Source: Lachnospiraceae bacterium
Lineage (GTDB): Bacteria > Bacillota > Clostridia > Lachnospirales > Lachnospiraceae
Assembly: GCA_900766925.1 (NCBI GenBank)
Contig: CAAFXG010000316.1
Location: forward strand, 3,735 to 67,734
Length of the DNA stretch: 64,000 bases
Reading direction: 5' to 3'
The translations under genes were made by a program, and so were the position numbers. The number at the start of each line of letters is the position of its first letter. Within the stretch, counting starts at the first letter, position 1. Positions 7,934 to 43,104 of this stretch are shown one piece after another. Under the pieces are notes generated by a model that was not told the origin of the DNA, did not search any database, and was given only the letters and a program-made list of their open reading frames with translations.

Positions 7934-8017
7934 GCCGGTGTGTCGGAATTGGCAGACGAGGCAGACTCAAAATCTGTTGATGGCAACATCGTGCGGGTTC
8001 AAGTCCCGCCACCGGCA
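7934..8017 (+). tRNA. tRNA-Leu, anticodon CAA (type II, long variable arm)
   Basis: Hand-folded cloverleaf. Acceptor GCCGGTG/CACCGGC, anticodon stem GCAGA/TCTGT with loop CTCAAAA, 15-nt variable arm (GATG/CATC), T-arm GCGGG-TTCAAGT-CCCGC, discriminator A. CCA is not encoded. Confidence 0.93.
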
Positions 8018-31135: not shown

Positions 31136-32506
31136 ATGGAGCTTCCAAAATTATTTGAGAGTAATATGCGTTCCCTGCTTGGAGGGGAATTCGAACAATA
31201 TAAAGAATGTCTTGATAAACCTATGTATCATGGTATTCGAATTAATACAACTAAAATTTCAGTTGAGGATTTTCTAAAAATATCTCCGTTTCACCTGGAA
31301 CCGGTTCCATGGTGTTCAAACGGCTTTTATTATGATGAAGAAATTGATAAGCCATCTAAGCATCCATTTTATTTTGCAGGCTTATATTATATACAGGAGC
31401 CAAGTGCCATGACCCCTGCGGCTGTTATTCCCGTTAATAAGGGTGACAGGGTTCTTGATATTTGTGCAGCTCCCGGAGGTAAATCAACAGAATTAGCTTC
31501 AAAGCTTGCTGATACCGGAATACTTGTATCAAACGATATAAGTGCATCAAGAGCCAAGGCTTTACTCAAAAATTTAGAGGTTTTTGGAGTCGGCAATGCA
31601 CTTATTATCAGTGAAGCTCCATATAAGCTTTCTGAGCGTTTCCCCGAGTATTTTGATAAAATACTTATTGATGCACCATGTTCAGGCGAAGGTATGTTCA
31701 GAAAATCAAATTCAATGATTACTGCATGGGAAAATAACGGTAATCAATTATTTGCTGATATCCAGAGAAGTATTTTACCTGAGGCGGTAAAAATGCTTAA
31801 ACCGGGCGGAATGCTTCTTTATTCAACATGCACCTTTGCTCCACTTGAAAATGAACAATCTGTTGAATATTTACTTTCTTTAGATGACAATCTGGAAATT
31901 GTACCATTTGACAAATATGAAAAATTTGATGATGGTCACCCGGATTGGGGTAACACTGACAATGATGCATTAAAGAGTTGTGCAAGACTATGGCCGCACA
32001 GACTTAAAGGAGAGGGTCATTTTGTCTGTCTTGTAAAGAAGAACGGCACGTCAACCAATTCAGGTAATACCGGCGATTACCCTGTAAAAAGAGTAAAGCT
32101 TCCAAATGAGGTTACGGAATTCCTTGATTTGATTAATAAACCCTTTGACAAATCCAGATTCGAAATATCAGGTGATAAATTATATTACATTCCTGAAGCA
32201 TTTCCGGGAGTTCGTGGCTTAAGGATACTAAGATGCGGCTTGTACATGGGTGAACTTAAGAAGAATCGTTTTGAGCCAAGTCAGTCACTTGCAATGTATC
32301 TAAAGGGAGAGGAATTTACAAATTCAATTTCCTTAGCTGCAGATGATGAAAGAATCAAAAGGTATCTTAAGGGCGAAACAATTAACGTAGATGGTAAAGA
32401 CGGCTGGGCATTGATTTGTGTTAACTCATATCCGCTTGGCTGGGGTAAGCTTAACAACGGTACGCTCAAAAATAAATATCTTGCCGGCTGGAGACTTATG
32501 TCCTGA
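31136..32506 (+). CDS. RsmB/RsmF (NOL1/NOP2/Sun) family rRNA m5C methyltransferase
   Basis: SAM motif DICAAPGGKS, and catalytic Cys motifs DAPCSGEG and YSTCT. I prefer ATG 31136 over 31082, which overlaps hflX. Confidence 0.85.
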   Translation: MELPKLFESNMRSLLGGEFEQYKECLDKPMYHGIRINTTKISVEDFLKISPFHLEPVPWCSNGFYYDEEIDKPSKHPFYFAGLYYIQEPSAMTPAAVIPVNKGDRVLDICAAPGGKSTELASKLADTGILVSNDISASRAKALLKNLEVFGVGNALIISEAPYKLSERFPEYFDKILIDAPCSGEGMFRKSNSMITAWENNGNQLFADIQRSILPEAVKMLKPGGMLLYSTCTFAPLENEQSVEYLLSLDDNLEIVPFDKYEKFDDGHPDWGNTDNDALKSCARLWPHRLKGEGHFVCLVKKNGTSTNSGNTGDYPVKRVKLPNEVTEFLDLINKPFDKSRFEISGDKLYYIPEAFPGVRGLRILRCGLYMGELKKNRFEPSQSLAMYLKGEEFTNSISLAADDERIKRYLKGETINVDGKDGWALICVNSYPLGWGKLNNGTLKNKYLAGWRLMS

Positions 32507-32568
32507 CTGTTAGCATTGTTGTGTAAGCGTCATATTATGAAATATATTATTTTATGAGGTTTTTGTAT

Positions 32569-33153
32569 ATGAGTAAAGTAAAAAAAGGTGATTATGGATA
32601 TATAAAAGCATATAAAACAGGTAAATTACTGTGGTCACTCGCTTTTGCGATAATGATATCCATAACTGTAATTGCTACAATAATTATGTTCGGAGATACA
32701 TCCAGGGTTGCCATAGTATTTGCAATACTTTTATCCCTGCCCTTTGCCAAGTTTTTAATTTCGTATATTATGAGCGCTCCGTTTAATCCCTTGTCAGAGG
32801 ATGATTACAGGAAAATATGCGATGGCACATGCGACTCAAATGGGGTATGTCAGGGACTGTACTTTGATATTGCAATTTCCATGTATGAGGGTATTAATTT
32901 TTATCCATCAATGTGTATAAAGAATGGAAGAATATACGCCTATGTAATAGATAAGCAATTTAATACTAACAAAAAGAATTATGAAAAATGGATTAAACAG
33001 TGTATAGCAGACAGTAAATATGATTACCCGATAACTTTATTTGACAATCTTGATGCCTATATCAAAAAGGTTGGGTCAATTAGCAGCCCTAATGATAAAA
33101 CATTATTGATTGACAAATTCATCAAAGACAAAATATTTGAATCTTCATTATAA
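32569..33153 (+). CDS. Hypothetical membrane protein
   Basis: ORF with two predicted TM helices (LLWSLAFAIMISITVIATIIMF and VAIVFAILLSLPFAKFLISYI). I recognised no family. Confidence 0.45.
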   Translation: MSKVKKGDYGYIKAYKTGKLLWSLAFAIMISITVIATIIMFGDTSRVAIVFAILLSLPFAKFLISYIMSAPFNPLSEDDYRKICDGTCDSNGVCQGLYFDIAISMYEGINFYPSMCIKNGRIYAYVIDKQFNTNKKNYEKWIKQCIADSKYDYPITLFDNLDAYIKKVGSISSPNDKTLLIDKFIKDKIFESSL

Positions 33154-33174
33154 GAGATGGTATAAGGATGAAAC

Positions 33175-34185
33175 ATGATTGAATTAATAATTTCAAATAA
33201 TGATGCGGGGCAGCGCCTGAACAAGTTTCTTATGAAATATCTAAATGAAGCTCCATCTTCATTTATTTACAAAATGCTCCGCAAAAAAAATATAGTTCTT
33301 AATAACCTTAAGGCTAAGGGTGATGAAATTCTTGTTTTGGGCGATAGTGTTAAGCTTTACCTTGCAGATGAAACAATAACCCGATTCCAATCAGATAATA
33401 ATAATAAACAGTGTGATAAGGCTGTAACCAATAAGGAAATTAATAAAAATACACTGGTGATTCTGTATAAGAATAACGATATAATTGCGGTTCATAAGCC
33501 TGCAGGTGTTCTTTCCCAGAAATCAAAGTCCTCTGATTATTCAATTAATGAATGTATAGTTGACTATTACAACACGAATATTTCTGATTCCTTATACAAT
33601 CAAACATTTAAGCCCTCTGTCTGTAACCGTTTAGACAGAAACACCTCCGGAATTATACTTGCGGGTATATCTCTTAAAGGAAGTCAAATGCTTTCAAGAA
33701 TGCTTAAGGACAGGGAAGCAGATAAGTTTTATTTTACAATTGTTAAAGGTGATTTTAAATCCAGGAAAAGAATTACATCTTATATCAGTAAAGACGGAAC
33801 CCAAAATATGTCTGTAGTGATTGGGGAAGCAGACTACAACAAATCAAAGAAATATCCTGAAGAATATACAAGGATTGAAACAGAATTCATTCCGGTTTCA
33901 TTTTCTAATGGATTTACATTATTAAAGATTAAACTTATTACAGGCAAATCACATCAAATAAGGGCACAATTAAAGCAGCTTGGCTTTCCGATAATTGGAG
34001 ACACCAAGTATGGGGATGAAAGCTGCAACCGTCAAATGAAGAAGAATTTTAATTTGAAGAATCAGCTTCTTCACGCAGGTCTTGTTATTATGCCTGACCA
34101 AACCAGGATATACGACCCGCTTCCTGAGCAATTTATTATGATTTGTAATGGACTTGGGCTGGATATAAAGAATATTGAAGAATAA
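33175..34185 (+). CDS. RluA-family pseudouridine synthase with S4-like N-domain
   Basis: Catalytic motif CNRLDRNTSGIIL and C-terminal GKSHQIRAQL. Confidence 0.85.
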   Translation: MIELIISNNDAGQRLNKFLMKYLNEAPSSFIYKMLRKKNIVLNNLKAKGDEILVLGDSVKLYLADETITRFQSDNNNKQCDKAVTNKEINKNTLVILYKNNDIIAVHKPAGVLSQKSKSSDYSINECIVDYYNTNISDSLYNQTFKPSVCNRLDRNTSGIILAGISLKGSQMLSRMLKDREADKFYFTIVKGDFKSRKRITSYISKDGTQNMSVVIGEADYNKSKKYPEEYTRIETEFIPVSFSNGFTLLKIKLITGKSHQIRAQLKQLGFPIIGDTKYGDESCNRQMKKNFNLKNQLLHAGLVIMPDQTRIYDPLPEQFIMICNGLGLDIKNIEE

Positions 34186-34198
34186 ATAGGATTTACTT

Positions 34199-34729
34199 AT
34201 GGCAACTTGGAATTCCAGAGGATTAAGAGGTTCGACCTTAGAGGAACTAATCAATCTTACAAATGAATTATACAGAGAAAAAAATCTTGGCTTAGTCCAA
34301 AAAATACCAACACCAATAACCCCGGTCAAAATAGATAAGGAAAATGGAAACATTTCTCTGGCTTATTTTGAAAAGGATTCTACAGTTGATTATATCGGTG
34401 TTGTTCAGGGGATACCCATATGCTTTGACGCAAAGGAATGTGCCACAGATACATTTCCCCTACGCAATATACATGAGCATCAGGTAAGCTTTATGGAGGA
34501 CTTTGAAAGACAGGATGGTATCAGCTTTTTAGTTATAATGTTTACATCCAAAAATGAATTTTACTATTTAAGATTCTCTGAATTAAAGAAATATCTGGAC
34601 AGGGTCAATGACGGTCATGCCAGAAATTTTAAATATGATGAGCTGGACAAAAAATATTTTATACGCTCAGAATCCGGTGCACCGGTTCATTATCTAAAGG
34701 GGCTTCAGCTCGATATAAAGGAAAGGTAG
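34199..34729 (+). CDS. recU: Holliday junction resolvase RecU
   Basis: NSRGLRGSTLEELINLTNELY...VQKIPTPI...VDYIGVVQGIPICFDAKEC matches RecU. Confidence 0.85.
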   Translation: MATWNSRGLRGSTLEELINLTNELYREKNLGLVQKIPTPITPVKIDKENGNISLAYFEKDSTVDYIGVVQGIPICFDAKECATDTFPLRNIHEHQVSFMEDFERQDGISFLVIMFTSKNEFYYLRFSELKKYLDRVNDGHARNFKYDELDKKYFIRSESGAPVHYLKGLQLDIKER

Positions 34730-34737
34730 GAATAAAG

Positions 34738-36696
34738 ATGTACGACTACTATAGAACCGCGGTAGCGGTACCTGATATAAAGGTCTGCGATGTTCAATAT
34801 AATACACAGGAAATTATCAGCAAAATTAACGAGGCAAATAAGGAATCAGTTAAACTGATTACATTTCCGGAGCTTTCTCTTACCGGATACACCTGTGCCG
34901 ACTTATTTCTGCAGGAGCTTGTAATAACAGAGGTCCATAAGGGACTGAGCCAAATTCTTAACGCTTCCTGTGGTCTTGATATGATTATAGTGGTTGGCGC
35001 ACCTGTAAGGCTTTCATACCAGCTTTTTAATTCAGCAATTGTAATTTACAATGGACAGATACAGGGAATTAATGTAAAGACATTTATCCCTAATTATAAT
35101 GAATTTTACGAAAAAAGATGGTTTTCCTCAGCTTCAGAGCTTGATGCAGAAGAGGTATCATCCAGAGAAATACTTGGAAATGAATGCACTGATAATTATT
35201 ACATTCCAATTGGTAATGATATAATTTATCGGGTAAATGACGAGCTTACCTTCGGTATTGAAATATGTGAGGATGTATGGTCACCTTTACCGCCATCTAC
35301 CTGGATGGCAATGTCAGGAGCAGAAGTTATTCTGAATCTGTCAGCCAGCAATGACACAATAGGCAAACGTGATTACAGAAGACAGCTTATCAAAAGTCGT
35401 TCGACAGCTCTAATGTGTGAATATATTTATGTATCATCAGGAAGCTCAGAAAGTAGCACAGACCTGATTTTTTCCGGTCACAGCCTCATAGCTGAAAATG
35501 GAAGAGTTTTGATTGAAAACGAAAAAATAGTTGACAATAATTATATTATGGTATCGGATATGGATTTGGGAAAAATTCGTGCGGACCGTTTGAAGGGAAA
35601 AACCTTCAAGGATACCTACAGATTGTATGGAAAAGAGCATAGTATTCGTCAGATAGAATTTAATATGGAGTGTAATTTGACGTCTGACGGTTCAAAATAT
35701 AGAATCAATCCACGACCTTTTATTCCGTCATCCAAAAGCAAACGACTTGAACGTTGCAGGGATATATTTGACATGCAGGTCGGTGGACTTGCAAAACGTA
35801 TTTCAATAACAGGCGGAAAGATGGTAATTGGTGTATCGGGCGGAATGGATTCAACCCTGGCACTTCTGGTAGGTGCCCAGACACTTAAGAAGCTTGGAAG
35901 GCCAATGACAGACCTTGTTGGTATTACCATGCCGGCCTTTGGAACAACTGACAGAACCTACAATAATTCACTGACATTAATGAAAACCCTCGGAATAAGT
36001 ACTGAAACAATTCCAATAAAGGATGCATGTATACAGCACTATAGGGATATTGGACATGATATCGAGGTTAAAGATATTACCTTTGAAAATGTTCAGGCAA
36101 GGGAGAGAACACAGGTATTAATGGATTATGCCAACAAAATCGGAGCGATTGTGGTAGGTACCGGCGATTTATCCGAGCTTGCTCTTGGCTGGTGCACATA
36201 TAATGCAGATCAGATGAGTATGTATGGTGTAAATGCAAGTATTCCAAAAACTCTTGTAAAATGGCTTATTGACAGTGTTGTCCAATACAACCTGTTTCCG
36301 GACAGCAGTGAGGTATTAAAGGATATTATTGAAACTCCTATTAGCCCCGAGCTTCTGCCACCTGATGAAAATGGCAATATATCACAGAAAACTGAGGATT
36401 CTGTCGGACCATATGAATTACATGATTTCTTTTTATACTATGTAATGCGTTACGGCTTTTCACCATCAAAAATATATTATATGGCTACCCGGGCATTTGA
36501 TGGTGATTATGATTCCTGCACAATCCTTAAATGGATGAAAACATTTTACAGGAGATTTTTTAGTCAGCAGTTTAAAAGAAGCTGTATGCCGGATGGTGTA
36601 AAGGTAGGTAGTGTATGTCTCTCACCAAGAGGCGACTGGAGAATGCCTTCCGATGCCTCAGTTAATATATGGATGAAGGAGCTTGACAATTTATAA
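34738..36696 (+). CDS. nadE: Glutamine-dependent NAD+ synthetase
   Basis: 652 aa. N-terminal CN-hydrolase domain (FPELSLTGY, EICEDVW) plus a synthetase domain with the PP-loop GVSGGMDST. Confidence 0.9.
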   Translation: MYDYYRTAVAVPDIKVCDVQYNTQEIISKINEANKESVKLITFPELSLTGYTCADLFLQELVITEVHKGLSQILNASCGLDMIIVVGAPVRLSYQLFNSAIVIYNGQIQGINVKTFIPNYNEFYEKRWFSSASELDAEEVSSREILGNECTDNYYIPIGNDIIYRVNDELTFGIEICEDVWSPLPPSTWMAMSGAEVILNLSASNDTIGKRDYRRQLIKSRSTALMCEYIYVSSGSSESSTDLIFSGHSLIAENGRVLIENEKIVDNNYIMVSDMDLGKIRADRLKGKTFKDTYRLYGKEHSIRQIEFNMECNLTSDGSKYRINPRPFIPSSKSKRLERCRDIFDMQVGGLAKRISITGGKMVIGVSGGMDSTLALLVGAQTLKKLGRPMTDLVGITMPAFGTTDRTYNNSLTLMKTLGISTETIPIKDACIQHYRDIGHDIEVKDITFENVQARERTQVLMDYANKIGAIVVGTGDLSELALGWCTYNADQMSMYGVNASIPKTLVKWLIDSVVQYNLFPDSSEVLKDIIETPISPELLPPDENGNISQKTEDSVGPYELHDFFLYYVMRYGFSPSKIYYMATRAFDGDYDSCTILKWMKTFYRRFFSQQFKRSCMPDGVKVGSVCLSPRGDWRMPSDASVNIWMKELDNL

Positions 36697-38210
36697 TGAA
36701 ATTAAACGATCTGTTGAAATATAATGATATAACCATTCAATGCCATGACAATCCTGATGCAGATGCAATTGCATCAGGCTATGGTTTATATTGCTTTTTT
36801 CATGCCATGGGCAAGAATGTAAAGCTTATTTACAGCGGAAATAATATTATTCAGAAGGCAAATCTTACCCTTATGATTGAAAAGCTTAACATACCGATTG
36901 GCTATTTCTCACCAACAGAGGTATCTGAGCATAAAATTAAGGGGCTGCTGATAACGGTAGATTGTCAGTATGGTGCGGGTAACGTGACTAAAATAGAAGC
37001 TGACACAATAGCAATAATTGACCATCATCAGATAGAGATAAATAATATTGACTTAAGCCTAATCATGCCCGGTATCGGAAGCTGTTCAACAATTATATGG
37101 AATATGCTGACGGAAGAAAACTTCAATATCTCAGATGATTTAGGTACAGCCTTATATTACGGATTACTGACAGATACTAATCAGTTTACGGAAATGCATA
37201 CTCCATTGGACAGAGATGCTCAGGACGGAATCTCATTTAATAATTCTTTTATTTCACTATTTTGTAATTCCAATATTTCACTTCGTGAGCTTGAAATAGC
37301 CGGAATTGCAATGCTTCGCTACAGCTTTAATGAAGATTATAATTTTGCAGTTATTAAAGCACAGCCCTGTGACCCCAATATTCTCGGATTAATCAGTGAC
37401 TTTTTATTACAGGTACATGAAATATTCACCTGCGTTGTATATAACGAGGTACCCGGTGGTTTTAAACTATCGGTGAGAAGCTGTGTGAGAGAAGTAAATG
37501 CAGGTGAGCTTGCTTCATTCCTTACCCAGGATTTGGGTTCAGGCGGAGGTCACTACCAGAAGGCCGGAGGATTTATAAGTAAGAAGCTTTTTGATGAAAA
37601 ATATACAAGTCTGCATTCAGAAGCGTATTTTAATAACAGAATGGTAGAATATTTCAATAATTATGATTTGGTTTATGCCAATGAATATGAGGCAGATATC
37701 GAATCTATGAAATGCTACAGAAAGAAGAATATCCCTGTTGGTTACGTTAATGCCTATGAGGTTCTTCCGGTCGGTACCCCTATAACAATTCGTACACTTG
37801 AGGGTGACATTGATATGCAGATAGAAGAAGACCTCATCATAATGATAGGTATTAAGGGAGAAGTATATCCAAACAGAATTGAAAAATTCAAGCGTTCCTA
37901 CAAGCCGCTTCCTGATAAATACATTTATAATAAATATGTAATTAACAACGATTATGAGCCTGTAATTAAGGACAGAAATACCGGTGAGATAAAGCCCCTT
38001 ATTGATTATGCAAAGGTTTGTGTTACAACCGGAGAAGTACAAATATACGCAAAGCCGATAGAAAAGGATGTAAAGGTATTTACAAGCTGGGATCAGGAAA
38101 AATATATGAAGGGCAGGATAGGGGATTATCTTGCTGTTCGAACTGATGATTTACATGATGTATATATAGTTGAGCAGAACATTTTCCAAAGAACATATGA
38201 ACAATTATAG
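36696..38210 (+). CDS. DHH/DHHA1 family phosphoesterase with a roughly 170-aa C-terminal extension of unknown family
   Basis: Motifs are HDNPDADAIAS, ITVDCQ, IIDHHQ, GLLTDTNQF and the DHHA1 motif GSGGGHYQKAGG. The ATG overlaps the nadE stop (TAATG). Confidence 0.8.
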   Translation: MKLNDLLKYNDITIQCHDNPDADAIASGYGLYCFFHAMGKNVKLIYSGNNIIQKANLTLMIEKLNIPIGYFSPTEVSEHKIKGLLITVDCQYGAGNVTKIEADTIAIIDHHQIEINNIDLSLIMPGIGSCSTIIWNMLTEENFNISDDLGTALYYGLLTDTNQFTEMHTPLDRDAQDGISFNNSFISLFCNSNISLRELEIAGIAMLRYSFNEDYNFAVIKAQPCDPNILGLISDFLLQVHEIFTCVVYNEVPGGFKLSVRSCVREVNAGELASFLTQDLGSGGGHYQKAGGFISKKLFDEKYTSLHSEAYFNNRMVEYFNNYDLVYANEYEADIESMKCYRKKNIPVGYVNAYEVLPVGTPITIRTLEGDIDMQIEEDLIIMIGIKGEVYPNRIEKFKRSYKPLPDKYIYNKYVINNDYEPVIKDRNTGEIKPLIDYAKVCVTTGEVQIYAKPIEKDVKVFTSWDQEKYMKGRIGDYLAVRTDDLHDVYIVEQNIFQRTYEQL

Positions 38211-38218
38211 GGGGAAAC

Positions 38219-40702
38219 ATGGATAATAAATATTTATATGATGCATTTATAAGCTACAGACACACAGAAATAGATAAGTTTGTAGCTGAAACCTTACATA
38301 AGGAATTAGAATCATTTAAATTACCCAAAAAGCTTCGTAAAACAGGTGGTAGAGCAAGAACAAAAATAAACAGAGTATTTCGTGATAAGGATGAGCTTCC
38401 TTTAACCAGCAATCTTGAAGATCCAATTATTAATGCATTAGAGCAATCGGAATTTCTTATTGTAATCTGCTCGCCAAGACTTCCGGAATCAATCTGGTGC
38501 CAAAAAGAGATTGAAACATTTATAAGCATGCATGGAAGGCACAAGGTTCTAGCCGTTCTTATAGAAGGCGAACCTGACGAGTCCTTCCCTGATGCACTTT
38601 TATTTGATAATGTAACTGTACAGAATGAAGACGGTTCAACAAGTATCATCAAAAAACCTGTTGAACCACTTGCAGCAGACTTCAGGGGCTCAACCAAAAA
38701 GCAGATTAAAAAAGCTATGAAATCGGAAATATTAAGACTGCTTGCTCCAATGTTCGATCTGTCGTATGATGATTTAAAGCGACGCCACAGAGAAAGGAAA
38801 ATACGTAAAATAATAGGTGTATCTGTAGCCGTATCCATTGCAAGTATATTGTTTGCCGGCTACAGCGCAATTATGGCTCATAAAATTCAAAAACAGAATA
38901 TAAAAATTGAACAACAGTCACAGGAGATAGAAGCTCAAAATGAAAATCTGAAAATACAGGCTGAGGAAATTGAGGCACAGAATCAAAATCTTAAGCTTGA
39001 GCAGGCAAGAAGCTTAGCAAAGAACGCCGAAAATCTCCTTGCCAGGGACGACAGATATGGTGCTGTTAAACTGGCTTACGAAGCTGTAACGGATTATGAA
39101 GGTATGGAAATGCCTCTTACCCCGGAGGGCAGACTTGCACTGACCGAGTGCCTTGGTCTTTATGATGGTTGTTCAAATGTAAGTGCTGTTAAGCAGCTTG
39201 AAACACCCGGCATTATAGATTCAATAAAGGTGTCACCTGAAAAAGATTTATTACTTACCCTGGACAGTATCGGAAACCTTATACTATGGAATGTATCAGA
39301 CAGTAATAAGCTTATCAGTATAACAGAGCCAAATGGAATTCTGTCATACGATTTTATAAATGAAGATTCATTTTTCTATTTAAATAACGAAAATAAACTA
39401 ATAAAGGTTAATATAGCAGACAAAAACGAAACATTATATACAAGCTCAGATTCAATATTTGGAGATATTTATAATGCAATTTCAACTCCTGATGGTAAAA
39501 AAATAATTGTCCGTGAGATGTATTCATATGTGGTTCTGGATGCAAAAAATCTTACGGAAATATCAAGGTATGACGTACCATATGATATAGTCAATACTAA
39601 AATTATGTGTTCAGATGATTCCTCTGAGGCATACATTTTTGCACAAAATGAGGATGACGGATTATCTGTAATCTCCTTTAATATCTCTGACGGAAGTCAG
39701 ATTATTCAAAGCGATGCACCTGCCGGTATAATTTCCGATGTATGTAACAATTCAACCGGTATTTATGTACTCAGCTTTGATTTTGCAAGCTATAATTCTT
39801 TAAAGTCCGTAGTAACAGCCTATGACAGGACAACAGGTGAAATTAAATGGACAAGAGAAGAGGACGCAGTAGTAGCAAATAAGATGTATTATTCTAACAA
39901 GGACGGTAATGGTTTCATACTTGTGGTATCAGACCACGAGAGCCGGTTAATTGATGCAGGAACTGGCGAACAGATTAAATATTATATTACGGATACCGAA
40001 GCTGTTACCTGTAAGCTGAGCCAAAACGGTGATTTTATATTATATACTTCCGATGGTGTATGTCATTATATAAATACTACAAAGGATAAAATGGATGTAG
40101 GTCTTCAAACCATAGTATGTAACAATATTTCATTATTGGATATCACAACCTCCGGATGTGTTGGTGTACCGGAAAATGATAATCGTGTAATTATCTACAC
40201 ATATCGAAGAAACCTCGACTCAGCAGTATTTGATGGCGAACTCGCAGAAGCTTTAACAACAAATGAAACTGATGATTCCATACTTAATGAATGGGGCAAA
40301 GAAAACGGAATTGAAAGAGCTGCATTTATAAGTACATACTTAAATATTCCTGATGCAAACCTTGTTTTAGTTGCTTTCGTTGATGAATCCATTGAATTCT
40401 ACAGAGCTGATACAATGGAGTTTCTGACACATTACGATGATTTTAATGCAATGATGTGTGATTACTATGGTGAAGTAGATGGCTTATACTATATAACAAC
40501 CGTTACGGAAGGAATAGCTGTAGATAAAGACGGAAATATAATAAGCAGAATTGATGAAATGTGTGGTCTCTCTAAAGATTTGAAGCAGGTGGTTGTCTAT
40601 GGCCGTGATGAAAACGCCAAGCAGTGCCGGATTTCAATTCCTATCTACTCATTTGAAGAAATAATAAATCGTACCAAAGAATTCCTTGGTACAGAGGAAT
40701 AA
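38219..40702 (+). CDS. TIR-domain transmembrane protein with coiled coil and beta-propeller-like C-terminal region
   Basis: aa 5-135 read YDAFISYRHTE...VFRDKDELPL...FLIVICSP...SIWCQKEIE (TIR_2-like). KRRHRERKIRK is followed by a TM helix IIGVSVAVSIASILFAGYSAIMA (aa 198-220). A QNxNLK coiled coil follows, then about 550 aa with WD40-like strands (for example GNLILWNV). Confidence 0.8.
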   Translation: MDNKYLYDAFISYRHTEIDKFVAETLHKELESFKLPKKLRKTGGRARTKINRVFRDKDELPLTSNLEDPIINALEQSEFLIVICSPRLPESIWCQKEIETFISMHGRHKVLAVLIEGEPDESFPDALLFDNVTVQNEDGSTSIIKKPVEPLAADFRGSTKKQIKKAMKSEILRLLAPMFDLSYDDLKRRHRERKIRKIIGVSVAVSIASILFAGYSAIMAHKIQKQNIKIEQQSQEIEAQNENLKIQAEEIEAQNQNLKLEQARSLAKNAENLLARDDRYGAVKLAYEAVTDYEGMEMPLTPEGRLALTECLGLYDGCSNVSAVKQLETPGIIDSIKVSPEKDLLLTLDSIGNLILWNVSDSNKLISITEPNGILSYDFINEDSFFYLNNENKLIKVNIADKNETLYTSSDSIFGDIYNAISTPDGKKIIVREMYSYVVLDAKNLTEISRYDVPYDIVNTKIMCSDDSSEAYIFAQNEDDGLSVISFNISDGSQIIQSDAPAGIISDVCNNSTGIYVLSFDFASYNSLKSVVTAYDRTTGEIKWTREEDAVVANKMYYSNKDGNGFILVVSDHESRLIDAGTGEQIKYYITDTEAVTCKLSQNGDFILYTSDGVCHYINTTKDKMDVGLQTIVCNNISLLDITTSGCVGVPENDNRVIIYTYRRNLDSAVFDGELAEALTTNETDDSILNEWGKENGIERAAFISTYLNIPDANLVLVAFVDESIEFYRADTMEFLTHYDDFNAMMCDYYGEVDGLYYITTVTEGIAVDKDGNIISRIDEMCGLSKDLKQVVVYGRDENAKQCRISIPIYSFEEIINRTKEFLGTEE

Positions 40703-40735
40703 ATACCTTTAACTATATATTACCTTTTCCAATAT

Positions 40736-40939
40736 ATAAAAAACTGCCTGTGGCATAGGTTTTCCGCCCGGCAGTATATATGTATATGAACTAAGACACG
40801 CTCTCGCTCGGTTGTTCACGTAACGGTACTAAACTCGCGTAAAATGCACGCTCGTTAAGTGCCGACGTTCTCAAACGGTCTTAGTTCATATACATATATA
40901 CTGCCGGGCAGAAAACCTATGCCACAGGCAGTTTTTTAT
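40736..40939. repeat. Giant hairpin element copy 2: 62-bp stem with A-tract/T-tract flanks and an 80-nt apical core
   Basis: Positions 40736-40797 pair with 40878-40939 with a single C.A mismatch (40765/40910). The core 40798-40877 matches the reverse complement of the copy 1 core at about 65 of 80 hand-aligned positions. Confidence 0.8.
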
Positions 40940-41020
40940 TGTACAAATAATTATAAGAGCGTTTTAACGGACTTATAAAATGGTATATTATAACTGTTCA
41001 AGAGCAGACCGGTCAGAATA

Positions 41021-41116
41021 CGAATATTTGTTCGAAATAAATATTGACAAACGAACAAATGTACGTTATATTATATACAAGTCAATCGAACAGACGTTTA
41101 CAAGAACATTTGTTTA
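41021..41116. promoter_or_regulatory. Cluster of four LexA (Cheo box) operator candidates overlapping a sigma-A promoter
   Basis: The boxes are CGAATATTTGTTCG (41021-41034), CGAACAAATGTACG (41052-41065), CGAACAGACGTTTA (41087-41100) and AGAACATTTGTTTA (41103-41116), against the consensus CGAAC-N4-GTTCG. The promoter is TTGACA (41044-41049), 17-nt spacer, TATATT (41067-41072). Confidence 0.55.
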
Positions 41117-41135
41117 TAATAAGGAGGATTTATTT

Positions 41136-41462
41136 ATGAGAACACATGATACAGCTTATTTTATTCATAGAAATTTAAAATCAATTCTTGGAGGAATTAT
41201 TCTTTTACTTGTTTTAGGTATTCTTATTCTTGGAGTTTTTAATATTAACAGCAAGGCTTCAAATTATAATCAGAAGTATTTCAAGTGTATAGATATTTGC
41301 TATGAAGATACACTTTGGACAATTGCAGAAGAATATATGACAGAAGAGTATAAATCAGTTAATGATTACATCGAAGAAGTTAAGAGTATTAATGGTCTTA
41401 CAAGCGATAAAATTTACAGTGGTGCGACCTTAGTTGTTCCATACTACGCAGCACCCATGTAA
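41136..41462 (+). CDS. Small TM + LysM protein, YneA-like SOS cell-division inhibitor candidate
   Basis: 108 aa from ATG 41136 (RBS AAGGAGG 8 nt upstream). N-terminal TM helix ILGGIILLLVLGILILGVF. C-terminal LysM domain YEDTLWTIAEEY...INGLTSDKIYSGATLVVP. Confidence 0.65.
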   Translation: MRTHDTAYFIHRNLKSILGGIILLLVLGILILGVFNINSKASNYNQKYFKCIDICYEDTLWTIAEEYMTEEYKSVNDYIEEVKSINGLTSDKIYSGATLVVPYYAAPM

Positions 41463-41489
41463 TTTTTATATAAAATCATACCATACCTC

Positions 41490-41527
41490 AGAAGCCATCG
41501 TTATCCCATGTTCGATGGCTTCTTTTA
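41490..41527 (+). terminator. Intrinsic terminator after the LysM gene
   Basis: AGAAGCCATCG, 12-nt loop, CGATGGCTTCT, followed by TTTT. Confidence 0.75.
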
Positions 41528-41585
41528 ATCTTATTTATCATTTCTTAACTGTAAAATTTTGTTATATAAAAACAAATCGATATCA

Positions 41586-41614
41586 TTGAAAAATACACAT
41601 TCATGTTTTATAAT
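41586..41614 (+). promoter_or_regulatory. Sigma-A type promoter upstream of miaB
   Basis: TTGAAA (41586-41591), 17-nt spacer, TATAAT (41609-41614). Confidence 0.5.
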
Positions 41615-41652
41615 ATATTGGTTAAAATTTAAGCTATGAAAGGAAACATAAT

Positions 41653-43104
41653 ATGGATAACAGCACGATTCCAGCTATGGAGCCGGATAGACAATACTAT
41701 TTTATGAACAGATGCAAGGAGCACCTGCTTACGCTTAAGGCAGAAGCGAATCGTACACTTACATATAATGTGCAGACCTTCGGGTGTCAGATGAATGCCC
41801 ATGACTCTGAAAAGCTCAAAGGTATTCTGGACGAAATCGGATATGTGGAAATAGACGATGAAAAGGCCGATTTTGTAATATGTAATACATGTACAATAAG
41901 GGAGAATGCCAATCAGAAGCTCTATGGACATCTGGGGCATCTCAAGAGTCTTAAATCCAAGAATCCTAATATGATTATCTGCTTATGTGGATGTATGATG
42001 CAGGAACCACACGTAATAGAAACAATCCAAAAAAAATACCGTCATGTGGATATTATTTTCGGAACACATAATATTTATAAGCTTGCTGAGCTGATTTGTT
42101 CCTATTATCAAACCCATAAACCGGTAATTGAGGTATTGAATAACACAGACAAGATTGTAGAAAAGCTTCCACAGAAGCGTAAATATACCTTCAAGGCCGG
42201 TGTTAATATCACATATGGATGTAACAATTTCTGTACATACTGTATTGTTCCGTATGTACGTGGAAGAGAAAAGAGCCGCAAGCCGGAAGAGATAATTGCT
42301 GAAGTAAAAGCCCTGGCGATGACAGGTGTCAAAGAAATTATGTTACTCGGACAGAATGTCAATTCCTATGGTCAGATATATGATTATTCCGACGGTAAAA
42401 TTGTCAGAATGGATCCTGAGAATTCATGTACATTTCCACAGCTTCTTAAGAGGGTATGTGAGGTACCGGGTATAGAAAGAGTCAGATTTATGACAAGTCA
42501 TCCTAAGGATTTATCAGATGAGCTGATAGAAGTAATGGCCGGTGAACCAAAGGTATGTAATCATTTGCATTTGCCTGTACAGTCCGGCTCTACAGATATT
42601 CTGACTAAGATGAACAGACGATACACCAAAGAGCATTATCTGAATCTGGTTGACAAAATTCGTACAGCGATGCCTGATATTTCGCTTACAACTGATATTA
42701 TAGTAGGCTTTCCGGGTGAAACCGAAGAGGATTTCCTCGATACCTTAGATATAGTAGAACGTGTCAAATTTGATCAGGCATTTACATTTATTTATTCCAA
42801 GAGAACAGGTACTCCGGCAGCAACTATGGACAATCAGGTGCCGGAAGCTGTTGTAAAGGACAGATTTAGCCGACTGTTATCAAGTGTTAATACCATTGCC
42901 AATAAACAGGTTTCAAGATATGAAGGAATGGTTAAGGATGTTCTGGTAGAAGAAATCAATCATCACGATTCTTCGCTTGTTACCGGAAGAACAAGTGAAA
43001 ACATAACGGTTCATTTTCCGGGGGATGCCGGTATGATTGGACATATGGTAAAGGTAAAATTGACAGATTGTAAAGGATTCTATTTCCTGGGTACACAGGA
43101 ATAA
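41653..43104 (+). CDS. miaB: tRNA (i6A37) methylthiotransferase MiaB
   Basis: UPF0004 domain (QTFGCQMN), radical SAM motif GCNNFCTYCIVP, and a C-terminal TRAM domain. Confidence 0.9.
   Translation: MDNSTIPAMEPDRQYYFMNRCKEHLLTLKAEANRTLTYNVQTFGCQMNAHDSEKLKGILDEIGYVEIDDEKADFVICNTCTIRENANQKLYGHLGHLKSLKSKNPNMIICLCGCMMQEPHVIETIQKKYRHVDIIFGTHNIYKLAELICSYYQTHKPVIEVLNNTDKIVEKLPQKRKYTFKAGVNITYGCNNFCTYCIVPYVRGREKSRKPEEIIAEVKALAMTGVKEIMLLGQNVNSYGQIYDYSDGKIVRMDPENSCTFPQLLKRVCEVPGIERVRFMTSHPKDLSDELIEVMAGEPKVCNHLHLPVQSGSTDILTKMNRRYTKEHYLNLVDKIRTAMPDISLTTDIIVGFPGETEEDFLDTLDIVERVKFDQAFTFIYSKRTGTPAATMDNQVPEAVVKDRFSRLLSSVNTIANKQVSRYEGMVKDVLVEEINHHDSSLVTGRTSENITVHFPGDAGMIGHMVKVKLTDCKGFYFLGTQE

Follow-up and report, generated by a model that had tools for sequence, protein, structure and literature searches.

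The stretch of DNA analyzed here (the window), 64,000 nt of contig CAAFXG010000316.1 from the Lachnospiraceae bacterium assembly GCA_900766925.1, encodes an 827-amino acid protein in which an N-terminal TIR domain is followed by a predicted membrane helix, a helical stalk, and a β-propeller, an architecture and family assignment that we hold with high confidence. By the order of its parts, the protein is placed in a group of membrane-anchored TIR-repeat proteins resembling ApTIR of Actinoplanes sp., and the gene directly upstream is predicted to encode a phosphoesterase of the DHH-DHHA1 type. The best explanation of these observations as a whole is a type II ApTIR-like receptor with an NAD+-cleaving TIR domain and a DHH enzyme for nucleotide turnover, a reading that we judge to have an even chance of being correct. 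The gene and the parts of its product are listed below; the structural boundaries were taken in part from an AlphaFold2 (AF2) model.

38219..40702, plus strand: complete open reading frame (ORF), ATG start, stop codon included, encoding the 827-amino acid membrane-anchored TIR protein
38231..38623, plus strand: predicted cytoplasmic TIR domain, residues 5–135 (Pfam TIR_2, matches to TIR structures in the PDB, AF2 fold order)
38495..38509, plus strand: W93-C94-Q95-K96-E97, a WxxxE motif with the putative catalytic Glu (alignment to WCLEE of Roq1 and WCKYE of TLR2)
38624..38809, plus strand: family-specific extension, predicted cytoplasmic, residues 136–197 (invariant columns, AF2 secondary structure)
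38810..38878, plus strand: single predicted transmembrane helix, residues 198–220 (hydropathy, conserved position)
38879..39043, plus strand: predicted extracytoplasmic stalk helix, residues 221–275 (sequence, AF2 helix 219–275)
39044..39166, plus strand: helical cap before the propeller, residues 276–316 (AF2 helices 279–290 and 302–312)
39167..40210, plus strand: eight-bladed WD40-like β-propeller, residues ~317–664, predicted outside the membrane (AF2, Foldseek, profile search)
40211..40699, plus strand: C-terminal β-rich domain, residues 665–827 (AF2; strands within 704–808, terminal helix 812–823)

The N-terminal TIR_2 domain proposed in a preliminary description of this DNA was recovered with the Pfam TIR_2 model (PF13676), which matched residues 24–119 with an E-value of 1.6e-9 and 38.7 bits (cut-off 28). 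The ThsB_TIR Pfam model scored 24.2 bits, above its cut-off of 21.2, and the classic Pfam TIR model scored 19.7 bits over residues 7–122, slightly under its cut-off. Comparison of a profile of residues 1–197 with solved TIR domains returned TLR2 as the best match (E-value 4.8e-5), together with TLR6, flax L6, AbTir, Roq1, TcpB, and PdTIR. In the AF2 model, residues 7–135 form alternating strands and helices in an order compatible with the TIR fold; in the Foldseek search with the complete model, propeller matches prevailed and no fold-level TIR match was among those listed. Judged by these profile matches, the protein is a member of the TIR superfamily. The segment SIWCQKEIE pairs residue for residue with sTWCLEEL of Roq1 and sEWCKYEL of TLR2, and because this alignment is gapless, E97 falls at the catalytic-Glu position of the WxxxE motif, where the preliminary description had also put it. 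Neither W93 nor E97 varies, whether in the 64 homologs of one set or in the 80 homologs of a species-level set.

The TIR core is followed by an extension (residues 136–197) that consists of a β-hairpin with the invariant sequence E149-P-L-A-A-D154-x-R156-G, a helix at residues 160–178, and the juxtamembrane sequence KRRHRERKIRK. The EPLAADxRG hairpin motif is essentially invariant in the 80 species-level homologs, and the extension can be aligned with ApTIR. Directly after the basic cluster, the Kyte-Doolittle hydropathy reaches its maximum of 1.96 at residues 198–216, the sole segment above 1.5 (the runner-up reaches 1.44). A hydrophobic segment occupies the same place in 64 of 64 homologs, starting at residues 184–223, though identity there is just 30%. 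Counted in the 15-residue flanks of residues 198–220, Lys and Arg number 8 on the N-terminal side versus 3 on the C-terminal side; the corresponding means in 64 homologs are 5.4 and 2.4, and the N-terminal side is the richer one in 63 of the 64. The model has a folded TIR domain at the N-terminus and no signal peptide, and the last 607 residues have a strong acidic excess (102 Asp and Glu versus 50 Lys and Arg). Hydropathy and the positive-inside rule together make a type II arrangement, with the N-terminus in and the C-terminus out, the best-supported topology, which would place the TIR domain in the cytoplasm. The preliminary description had read both the single helix behind KRRHRERKIRK and the cytoplasmic TIR domain from the window sequence, and the homologs agree with it on each.

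Both copies of the coiled-coil repeat seen earlier, EIEAQNENLK (residues 236–245) and EIEAQNQNLK (residues 250–259), are present and lie within one predicted helix spanning residues 183–275. The AF2 model contains a continuous helix at residues 219–275, with predicted local distance difference test (pLDDT) values above 90 from about residue 240. Ile or Leu recurs at each seventh residue from 223 to 258, and the d positions in between are mostly Gln. Residues Q226, Q254, and Q262 are shared by 90% or more of the homologs, and I223 and L258 are conserved as well. The stalk is probably a weak, switchable coiled coil.

The AF2 model, built from 64 homologs with a mean pLDDT of 88, contains the propeller as well as the stalk helix. 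Its 31 strands between residues 317 and 664 are arranged as eight four-stranded blades, the final blade having three strands. When the PDB was searched with a family profile, the WD40 regions of Apaf-1, Tako8, and WDR5 were matched with E-values of 1e-15 to 1e-10, and Foldseek comparison of the model returned the eight-bladed propellers ODA16, Tako8, and BamB (E-values of about 1e-17 to 1e-14). The target-normalized template modeling (TM) scores were 0.75–0.77 for Tako8 and ODA16 and 0.65 for BamB. The preliminary description had assigned a WD40-like pattern to about 550 residues; this reading stands for the eight blades at residues ~317–664, and the remainder is instead a separate β-rich domain with strands at residues ~704–808. 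The C-terminal domain has block-mean pLDDT values of at least 90 across residues 665–820, and no specific assignment was obtained for it.

Searching for homologs of the protein resulted in 2067 sequences at an E-value of 1e-3 or better out of 8000 scored. Of the 120 listed, almost all span the full length, and those with names are annotated as 'TIR domain-containing protein' and come from Acetatifactor or other Lachnospiraceae. In a scan of GTDB with one genome per species, at least 508 species have a relative. Nearly all of these are Lachnospiraceae, core members of the human and animal gut microbiota in which the family is concentrated, and a few relatives are found in metagenome-assembled genomes (MAGs) labeled Bacilli, Erysipelotrichaceae, and Tenericutes. 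Cultured carriers include Lachnospiraceae bacterium AB2028 (with the DHH pair), Butyrivibrio fibrisolvens D1, and Ruminococcus lactaris ATCC 29176. An exhaustive search with residues 1–197 gave 2097 clusters (50% identity) at an E-value of 1e-30 or better. In the best 150 of these 2097 clusters, the TIR module is N-terminal and the proteins are mostly ~790–870 or ~950–1090 residues long, with propeller-type ectodomains in both length classes. Two contigs (L049 and L069) of the Lachnospiraceae MAG EHIM01_bin.010 each carry a family member, and some genomes may therefore hold paralogous receptors.

Conservation is distributed unevenly along the protein. Averaged over 63 homologs, identity to the window protein is 70% in the TIR domain, 62% in the linker, 30% in the transmembrane helix, 42% in the stalk, 22% in the propeller, and 24% in the C-terminal domain. 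A constant, predicted cytoplasmic output joined to a fast-diverging outer domain is the selection pattern expected of a receptor; the low ectodomain identity may instead reflect weaker constraint. The TIR-linker-transmembrane module is found in other lineages as well, and the part that follows the membrane helix varies among them. The relative in B. fibrisolvens D1 (814 residues, 54.5% identity) is encoded on a 243-kb replicon, and the 1018-residue relative in Fusobacterium vincentii joins the TIR-linker-transmembrane cassette to clear WD40 repeats. A 918-residue relative on Sinorhizobium megaplasmids has a TIR domain that starts about 150 residues into the protein and TPR repeats after the transmembrane helix. 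The TIR-plus-linker query also matched records from Rhizobium, Novosphingobium, Mycobacterium, and Streptomyces. This variety fits a modular receptor design in which a conserved TIR-linker-transmembrane output would be combined with interchangeable repeat-type sensors.

The likely output of the TIR domain can be gauged from relatives among the 160 bacterial TIR domains assayed by Weagley et al. (2022, PMC9092222). In Table S2 of that study, a construct of ApTIR (APTIR_ACTS5, Actinoplanes sp.) comprising residues 2–178, linker included, is listed as a producer of cyclic ADP-ribose (cADPR), and a review also counts ApTir among the TIR NADases. Alignment of ApTIR with the window protein (BLASTP E-value 1e-16 over 326 residues; hhalign 98.2% including the linker) extends through the transmembrane helix and coiled coil. 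The two proteins share an N-terminal TIR domain (YDAFISY..., VFRD..., and W..QEIE in ApTIR), an EPxxxDxR linker, a 'dL' helix, a basic cluster, a membrane helix, and a repetitive coiled coil; ApTIR differs in that it is only 26% identical, is actinobacterial, and has a much longer coiled coil. ApTIR was reportedly first tested by Essuman et al. in 2018. We take its UniProt entry to record C-terminal WD40 repeats, a region that the sequence given in Table S2 stops short of. The window protein has the same order of TIR domain, EPxxxDxR linker, single membrane helix, coiled-coil stalk, and repeat-type C-terminal domain and, judged by this order, is a member of the ApTIR-like group. An NAD+-cleaving output is plausible for the family, and for the window protein we consider it an evenly balanced proposition.

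Directly upstream of the TIR gene lies a second gene, the product of which is a conserved partner that the preliminary description overlooked.

36696..38210, plus strand: predicted 504-amino acid DHH-DHHA1 phosphoesterase resembling NrnA, Pde2, and the catalytic domain of GdpP (Pfam DHH, E-value 5e-15, and DHHA1; Foldseek)
38209..38214, plus strand: Shine-Dalgarno-like AGGGGG, overlapping the DHH stop codon TAG (38208–38210) and ending 4 nt before the ATG of the TIR gene

Residues D21/D23, D89, D109-H110-H111, and D160 in the DHH domain of the upstream protein and G284-G285-H286 in its DHHA1 domain are invariant in 45 homologs, at least 90% of which also share G283. The AF2 model of the protein has a pLDDT of 86. 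Its first ~340 residues were matched by Foldseek to TM1595, GdpP, NrnA, Pde2, Rv2837c, and DhhP with E-values of 1e-17 to 1e-15, target-normalized TM scores against the solved enzymes being 0.6–0.7 at sequence identities of 16–20%. Alignments with RecJ ran over ~500 columns with a query-normalized TM score of just ~0.36. Among the matched enzymes, TM1595 acts on pApA and the catalytic domain of GdpP on cyclic di-AMP (c-di-AMP). On its catalytic motifs and two-domain fold, the protein is classed as a DHH/DHHA1 phosphoesterase. NrnA, Pde2, Rv2837c, TM1595, and GdpP have the same DHH and DHHA1 domains and all of the catalytic motifs; the window protein differs from them in an additional all-β C-terminal domain of ~180 residues (~323–504), which is conserved and rich in invariant positions and for which a PDB profile search and a Pfam scan (E-value up to 10) returned nothing credible. 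This domain is equally present in DHH orthologs without a TIR neighbor and is therefore not a dedicated TIR-binding adaptor.

In the window, the two genes are separated by 8 nt. Among 80 GTDB species loci, 53 have a co-directional DHH homolog (54–67% identical) as the immediate upstream neighbor of the TIR gene, often running into the TIR start, and in most paired loci the genes overlap or lie less than 100 nt apart. Starting from three DHH homologs (from MAGs labeled Blautia sp. and Clostridium sp. and from one mouse-gut metagenome contig), a TIR-transmembrane-propeller gene was found directly downstream in all three. Clustering of the outer flanking genes placed the pair in no fewer than 15 contexts that differ on both sides. 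The commonest of these, AICARFT on one side and GlnRS on the other, accounts for 17 of 61 loci; elsewhere the pair stands between trpA and an EAL gene, between a phosphoribosyltransferase and an ANTAR gene, or, as in the window, between NadE and a YneA-like gene. The adjacency predicts that the two genes are frequently co-transcribed. The window's NadE gene (34738–36696), for a glutamine-dependent NAD+ synthase, overlaps the DHH start by 1 nt at its stop codon, and given this overlap and the short gap that follows, nadE, DHH, and TIR form one tight co-directional array in this genome. NadE was considered as a partner, an NAD+ maker beside a putative consumer, and rejected: none of 87 related loci searched with tblastn has a NadE or YneA neighbor, and the NadE adjacency is treated as a coincidence of this genome. 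For a direct functional link between the TIR protein and the DHH protein, our confidence falls slightly short of even.

If the protein is an NAD+-cleaving receptor, its variable ectodomain would bind an extracytoplasmic ligand, with the envelope, the environment, or perhaps a phage as its source. Ligand binding would cluster or re-register the stalk and transmembrane helices and so bring the cytoplasmic TIR modules together, and the TIR assembly would form a composite active site like that of other TIR enzymes. The assembled TIR domains would then cleave NAD+, probably releasing an ADP-ribose-type or cADPR-type nucleotide, and the DHH phosphoesterase may act on the released nucleotide or on a linked pool, for turnover or reset. 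The complete outside-in pathway, in which a ligand oligomerizes the propeller receptor, the TIR domain makes a cADPR-type messenger, and the DHH enzyme degrades or processes that messenger, is improbable in our estimate.

Several points weigh against an NAD+-cleaving receptor with a DHH partner. TLR2, which is non-enzymatic, carries the same WxxxE Glu, so the presence of E97 is necessary and not diagnostic of catalysis. The orientation that would expose the propeller to an outside ligand is itself predicted from hydropathy and charge. DHH enzymes hydrolyze phosphoesters, and we know of none that acts on cADPR-type molecules. In a DHH-centered metagenome scan, the TIR gene is downstream in just 20 of 74 assessable DHH loci, and 27 of the 80 TIR loci have no DHH gene within the flanks searched (up to 6 kb, shorter on short contigs). 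Finally, when the isolated 139-residue TIR domain of RUMLAC_02310 from R. lactaris ATCC 29176 was assayed in E. coli, its NADase activity was recorded as 'None' (Weagley et al. 2022, Table S2, PMC9092222). RUMLAC_02310 belongs to the family proper (35% identity over 375 residues, E-value 4e-71), with the sequence EPMAADIRG, the basic cluster, the membrane helix, and a propeller-type ectodomain. It differs from the window protein in having SYSH and WVQRE rather than SYRH and WCQKE, and in having HTH_3 and DapF genes upstream rather than a DHH gene directly upstream. The assayed construct stops just short of the invariant EPxAADxRG hairpin and has no part that would oligomerize it, and the negative result is weakened on both counts.

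A further assayed protein, Bovatus_RS13830 of Bacteroides ovatus, has an N-terminal TIR domain (FISYRH..., LIVICSP), a hydrophobic segment resembling a membrane helix, and a large C-terminal region; its NADase score is likewise 'None' (Weagley et al. 2022, Table S2, PMC9092222). With this protein, N-terminal TIR-transmembrane layouts exist in Bacteroidota too.

One alternative concerns the DHH partner only. The adjacency of the two genes could be without function if the TIR gene had been inserted a single time behind a conserved housekeeping nanoRNase gene in an ancestral Lachnospiraceae and had since been inherited, and lost, at that place. The DHH gene is more conserved (50–67% identity) and more widespread than the TIR gene, and it often stands without a TIR gene between a 392-codon AICARFT/IMPCHas-like gene (as annotated in locus L001) and a GlnRS-like gene of ~560 codons. 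Many TIR-less DHH loci have flanking genes of the same size as those of this AICARFT-DHH-GlnRS context, which is also the dominant paired context, at 17 of 61 loci. Because just 20 of 74 DHH loci carry a TIR gene, the pairing could partly reflect inherited synteny. This one-way dependence indicates that DHH is a conserved gene in its own right and that TIR is an accessory gene found preferentially in its company, and since DHH is widespread without TIR, the enzyme also has a TIR-independent housekeeping role. Against an adjacency devoid of function, the pair remains adjacent and on the same strand in the 15 or more contexts in which both flanks differ. We regard this explanation as possible and somewhat doubtful.

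Several loci depart from the simple pair. In TIR loci without DHH, the upstream genes vary and include those for an S51 peptidase, GNAT, HD, ribosomal protein L17, NUDIX, DUF1232, and AraC proteins. An HD or a NUDIX gene is directly upstream of TIR in two DHH-less MAG loci (L045:5404-5970 and L063:5367-5912, in MAGs of which one is labeled Tenericutes and the other Bacilli). Both domains belong to nucleotide phosphohydrolases of other types, and such a gene might replace DHH functionally, one locus each being thin evidence. On metagenome contig L004 (6470-7989), the upstream DHH gene is split into ORFs of 112 and 370 amino acids by a frameshift, by pseudogene formation, or through an assembly error. 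Extra ORFs stand between DHH and TIR at four loci: ~241 and 247 amino acids at L120:7229-9502 and L143:7248-9503, 122 amino acids at L126:6042-8939, and 534 amino acids at L030:4333-5937. Genes with GGDEF-EAL or EAL domains recur within a few kilobases of the DHH-TIR pair or of a lone TIR gene in several contexts.

L001:3778-6384, L006:1821-4481, L089:1125-3854, L090:10296-12224, and L172:10734-12573: GGDEF-EAL or EAL genes (c-di-GMP turnover)

A second alternative keeps the receptor and removes its catalysis. The TIR domain would then be a non-enzymatic module for homotypic or heterotypic interaction, as in animal Toll-like receptors (TLRs), that recruits or regulates a partner, most plausibly the DHH protein through its C-terminal β domain, so that an envelope cue would alter the turnover of c-di-AMP, pApA, or nanoRNA. 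The inactivity of the RUMLAC_02310 TIR domain as an NADase is in line with such a scaffold, as is the fact that the best sequence match among solved structures is the TIR domain of TLR2, which has WC..E without catalysis. The DHH fold resembles c-di-AMP and pApA phosphodiesterases, and its C-terminal domain is rich in invariant residues and lacks an assignment. That domain, however, is equally found in orthologs without a TIR neighbor, 27 of 80 TIR loci are without a DHH neighbor, and the homologous ApTIR construct is catalytically active. We consider a purely scaffolding receptor unlikely.

The antiphage setting implied in the preliminary description is not borne out. TIR domains are common defense effectors, and an abortive-infection sensor dedicated to phages would detect phage adsorption or a breach of the envelope with its ectodomain and deplete NAD+ with its TIR domain. 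The ectodomain diverges far more than the TIR domain, otherwise syntenic loci differ in whether a TIR gene stands between DHH and a gene of ~560 codons (of the GlnRS family where annotated), and a PLD-like nuclease gene adjoins the Sinorhizobium relative on its upstream side, all of which would suit such a sensor, as would weak matches to defense proteins in PADLOC and NCBIfam. These matches, however, to PDC-S66, SAVED-TIR, retron-TIR, and Thoeris type III models, are limited to the TIR domain and far under their cut-offs; the NCBIfam model for Thoeris type III ThcB4, for example, scored 17 bits against a cut-off of 220. No ThsA, SLOG, Macro, SAVED, or CBASS partner was found among the window neighbors, and PADLOC recognized no Thoeris component among the TIR protein, the DHH protein, NadE, and the YneA-like protein. 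Membership in Thoeris, CBASS, or retron systems was rejected on the weakness and TIR-only extent of the matches, and the lack of a ThsA-type effector in particular excludes Thoeris. The flanks of the window gene and of related loci hold housekeeping genes and no defense island, and the GC content of the gene is that of the genome (36.2% versus 36.4% in the window). A search of 2.9 million viral contigs returned zero relatives, and a single Lachnospiraceae plasmid or chromid record with a relative was found. With its conserved synteny and its restriction mostly to one bacterial family, the distribution looks largely vertical rather than island-like. A dedicated antiphage sensor is thus quite unlikely.

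We found no description in the literature of the TIR-transmembrane-propeller architecture or of a DHH-TIR operon. As far as the searchable literature shows, members of the ApTIR-like membrane-anchored TIR-repeat group have never been studied as full-length receptors, and no earlier account seems to exist of a TIR protein paired with an NrnA/GdpP-like phosphodiesterase. To our knowledge, every bacterial TIR system investigated to date responds to intracellular events, either by depleting NAD+ or by making cADPR-type signals. If the window protein is a TIR enzyme controlled from outside the membrane, it would represent new input logic for an ancient immune domain and the closest functional parallel to TLRs outside animals. 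Should the complete outside-in pathway hold, hundreds of dominant gut Lachnospiraceae species would carry a module of a 'Toll-like receptor plus signal-clearing enzyme', and the cues sensed would be environmental, host-derived, or from neighboring cells, in place of classical intracellular phage defense. Conservation of the pair, whose phosphodiesterase resembles NrnA and GdpP, suggests that NAD-derived signals are linked to nucleotide turnover. In gut communities, products of microbial TIR domains, cADPR variants among them, can already be measured as metabolites (Weagley et al. 2022, PMC9092222).

The remaining features of the window concern the surroundings of the pair. Upstream lie housekeeping genes for an RluD-like pseudouridine synthase, RecU, and NadE, and a 199-amino acid ORF (32554–33153) without a Pfam or NCBIfam match stands upstream of the pseudouridine synthase gene. 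Downstream, a gene at 40980–41462 encodes a 160-amino acid LysM protein like the SOS division suppressor YneA (NCBIfam PRK14125, 56.1 bits, cut-off 60) and precedes miaB, mutS, mutL, and miaA. Between this gene and the TIR gene is an inverted repeat (40736–40797 and 40878–40939) that begins 34 nt past the TIR stop codon and has 62-nt arms, 98% complementary, with an 80-nt loop. No second copy of the repeat occurs in the window, and Rfam has no match to it. An element like a miniature inverted-repeat transposable element is one possible identity, a large terminator or regulatory hairpin another. The Rfam scan found nothing near the TIR gene, its sole match at the gathering threshold in the 64-kb window being a tRNA gene at 7934–8017. 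A promoter and terminator scan of positions 32000–41700 gave counts near the shuffled expectation in AT-rich DNA.

Compared with known systems, the window protein shares with Thoeris ThsB, TIR-SAVED, and retron-TIR proteins a TIR domain with a Glu at the catalytic position, and it differs from these and other defense TIR proteins in its predicted membrane anchor, large ectodomain, and housekeeping context. The resemblance to TLRs drawn in the preliminary description is retained as an analogy of layout. Like TLR2, the protein appears to be single-pass, with a repeat-domain sensor outside and a TIR domain inside, and WC..E is common to both. TLRs, however, are type I proteins with a C-terminal TIR domain, whereas the window protein is predicted to be type II with an N-terminal one; their ectodomain consists of leucine-rich repeats (LRRs) rather than a β-propeller, and their TIR domains serve as scaffolds for adaptors of the MyD88 type, which bacteria lack. 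Membership among TLRs was set aside because of the missing LRR ectodomain and the opposite orientation, and the likeness is one of layout only. Receptor Ser/Thr kinases of the PknD type in M. tuberculosis combine a cytoplasmic enzyme, one transmembrane helix, and an extracytoplasmic β-propeller. The window protein would follow, by analogy only, the same type II logic, with a TIR domain as its output in place of the kinase.

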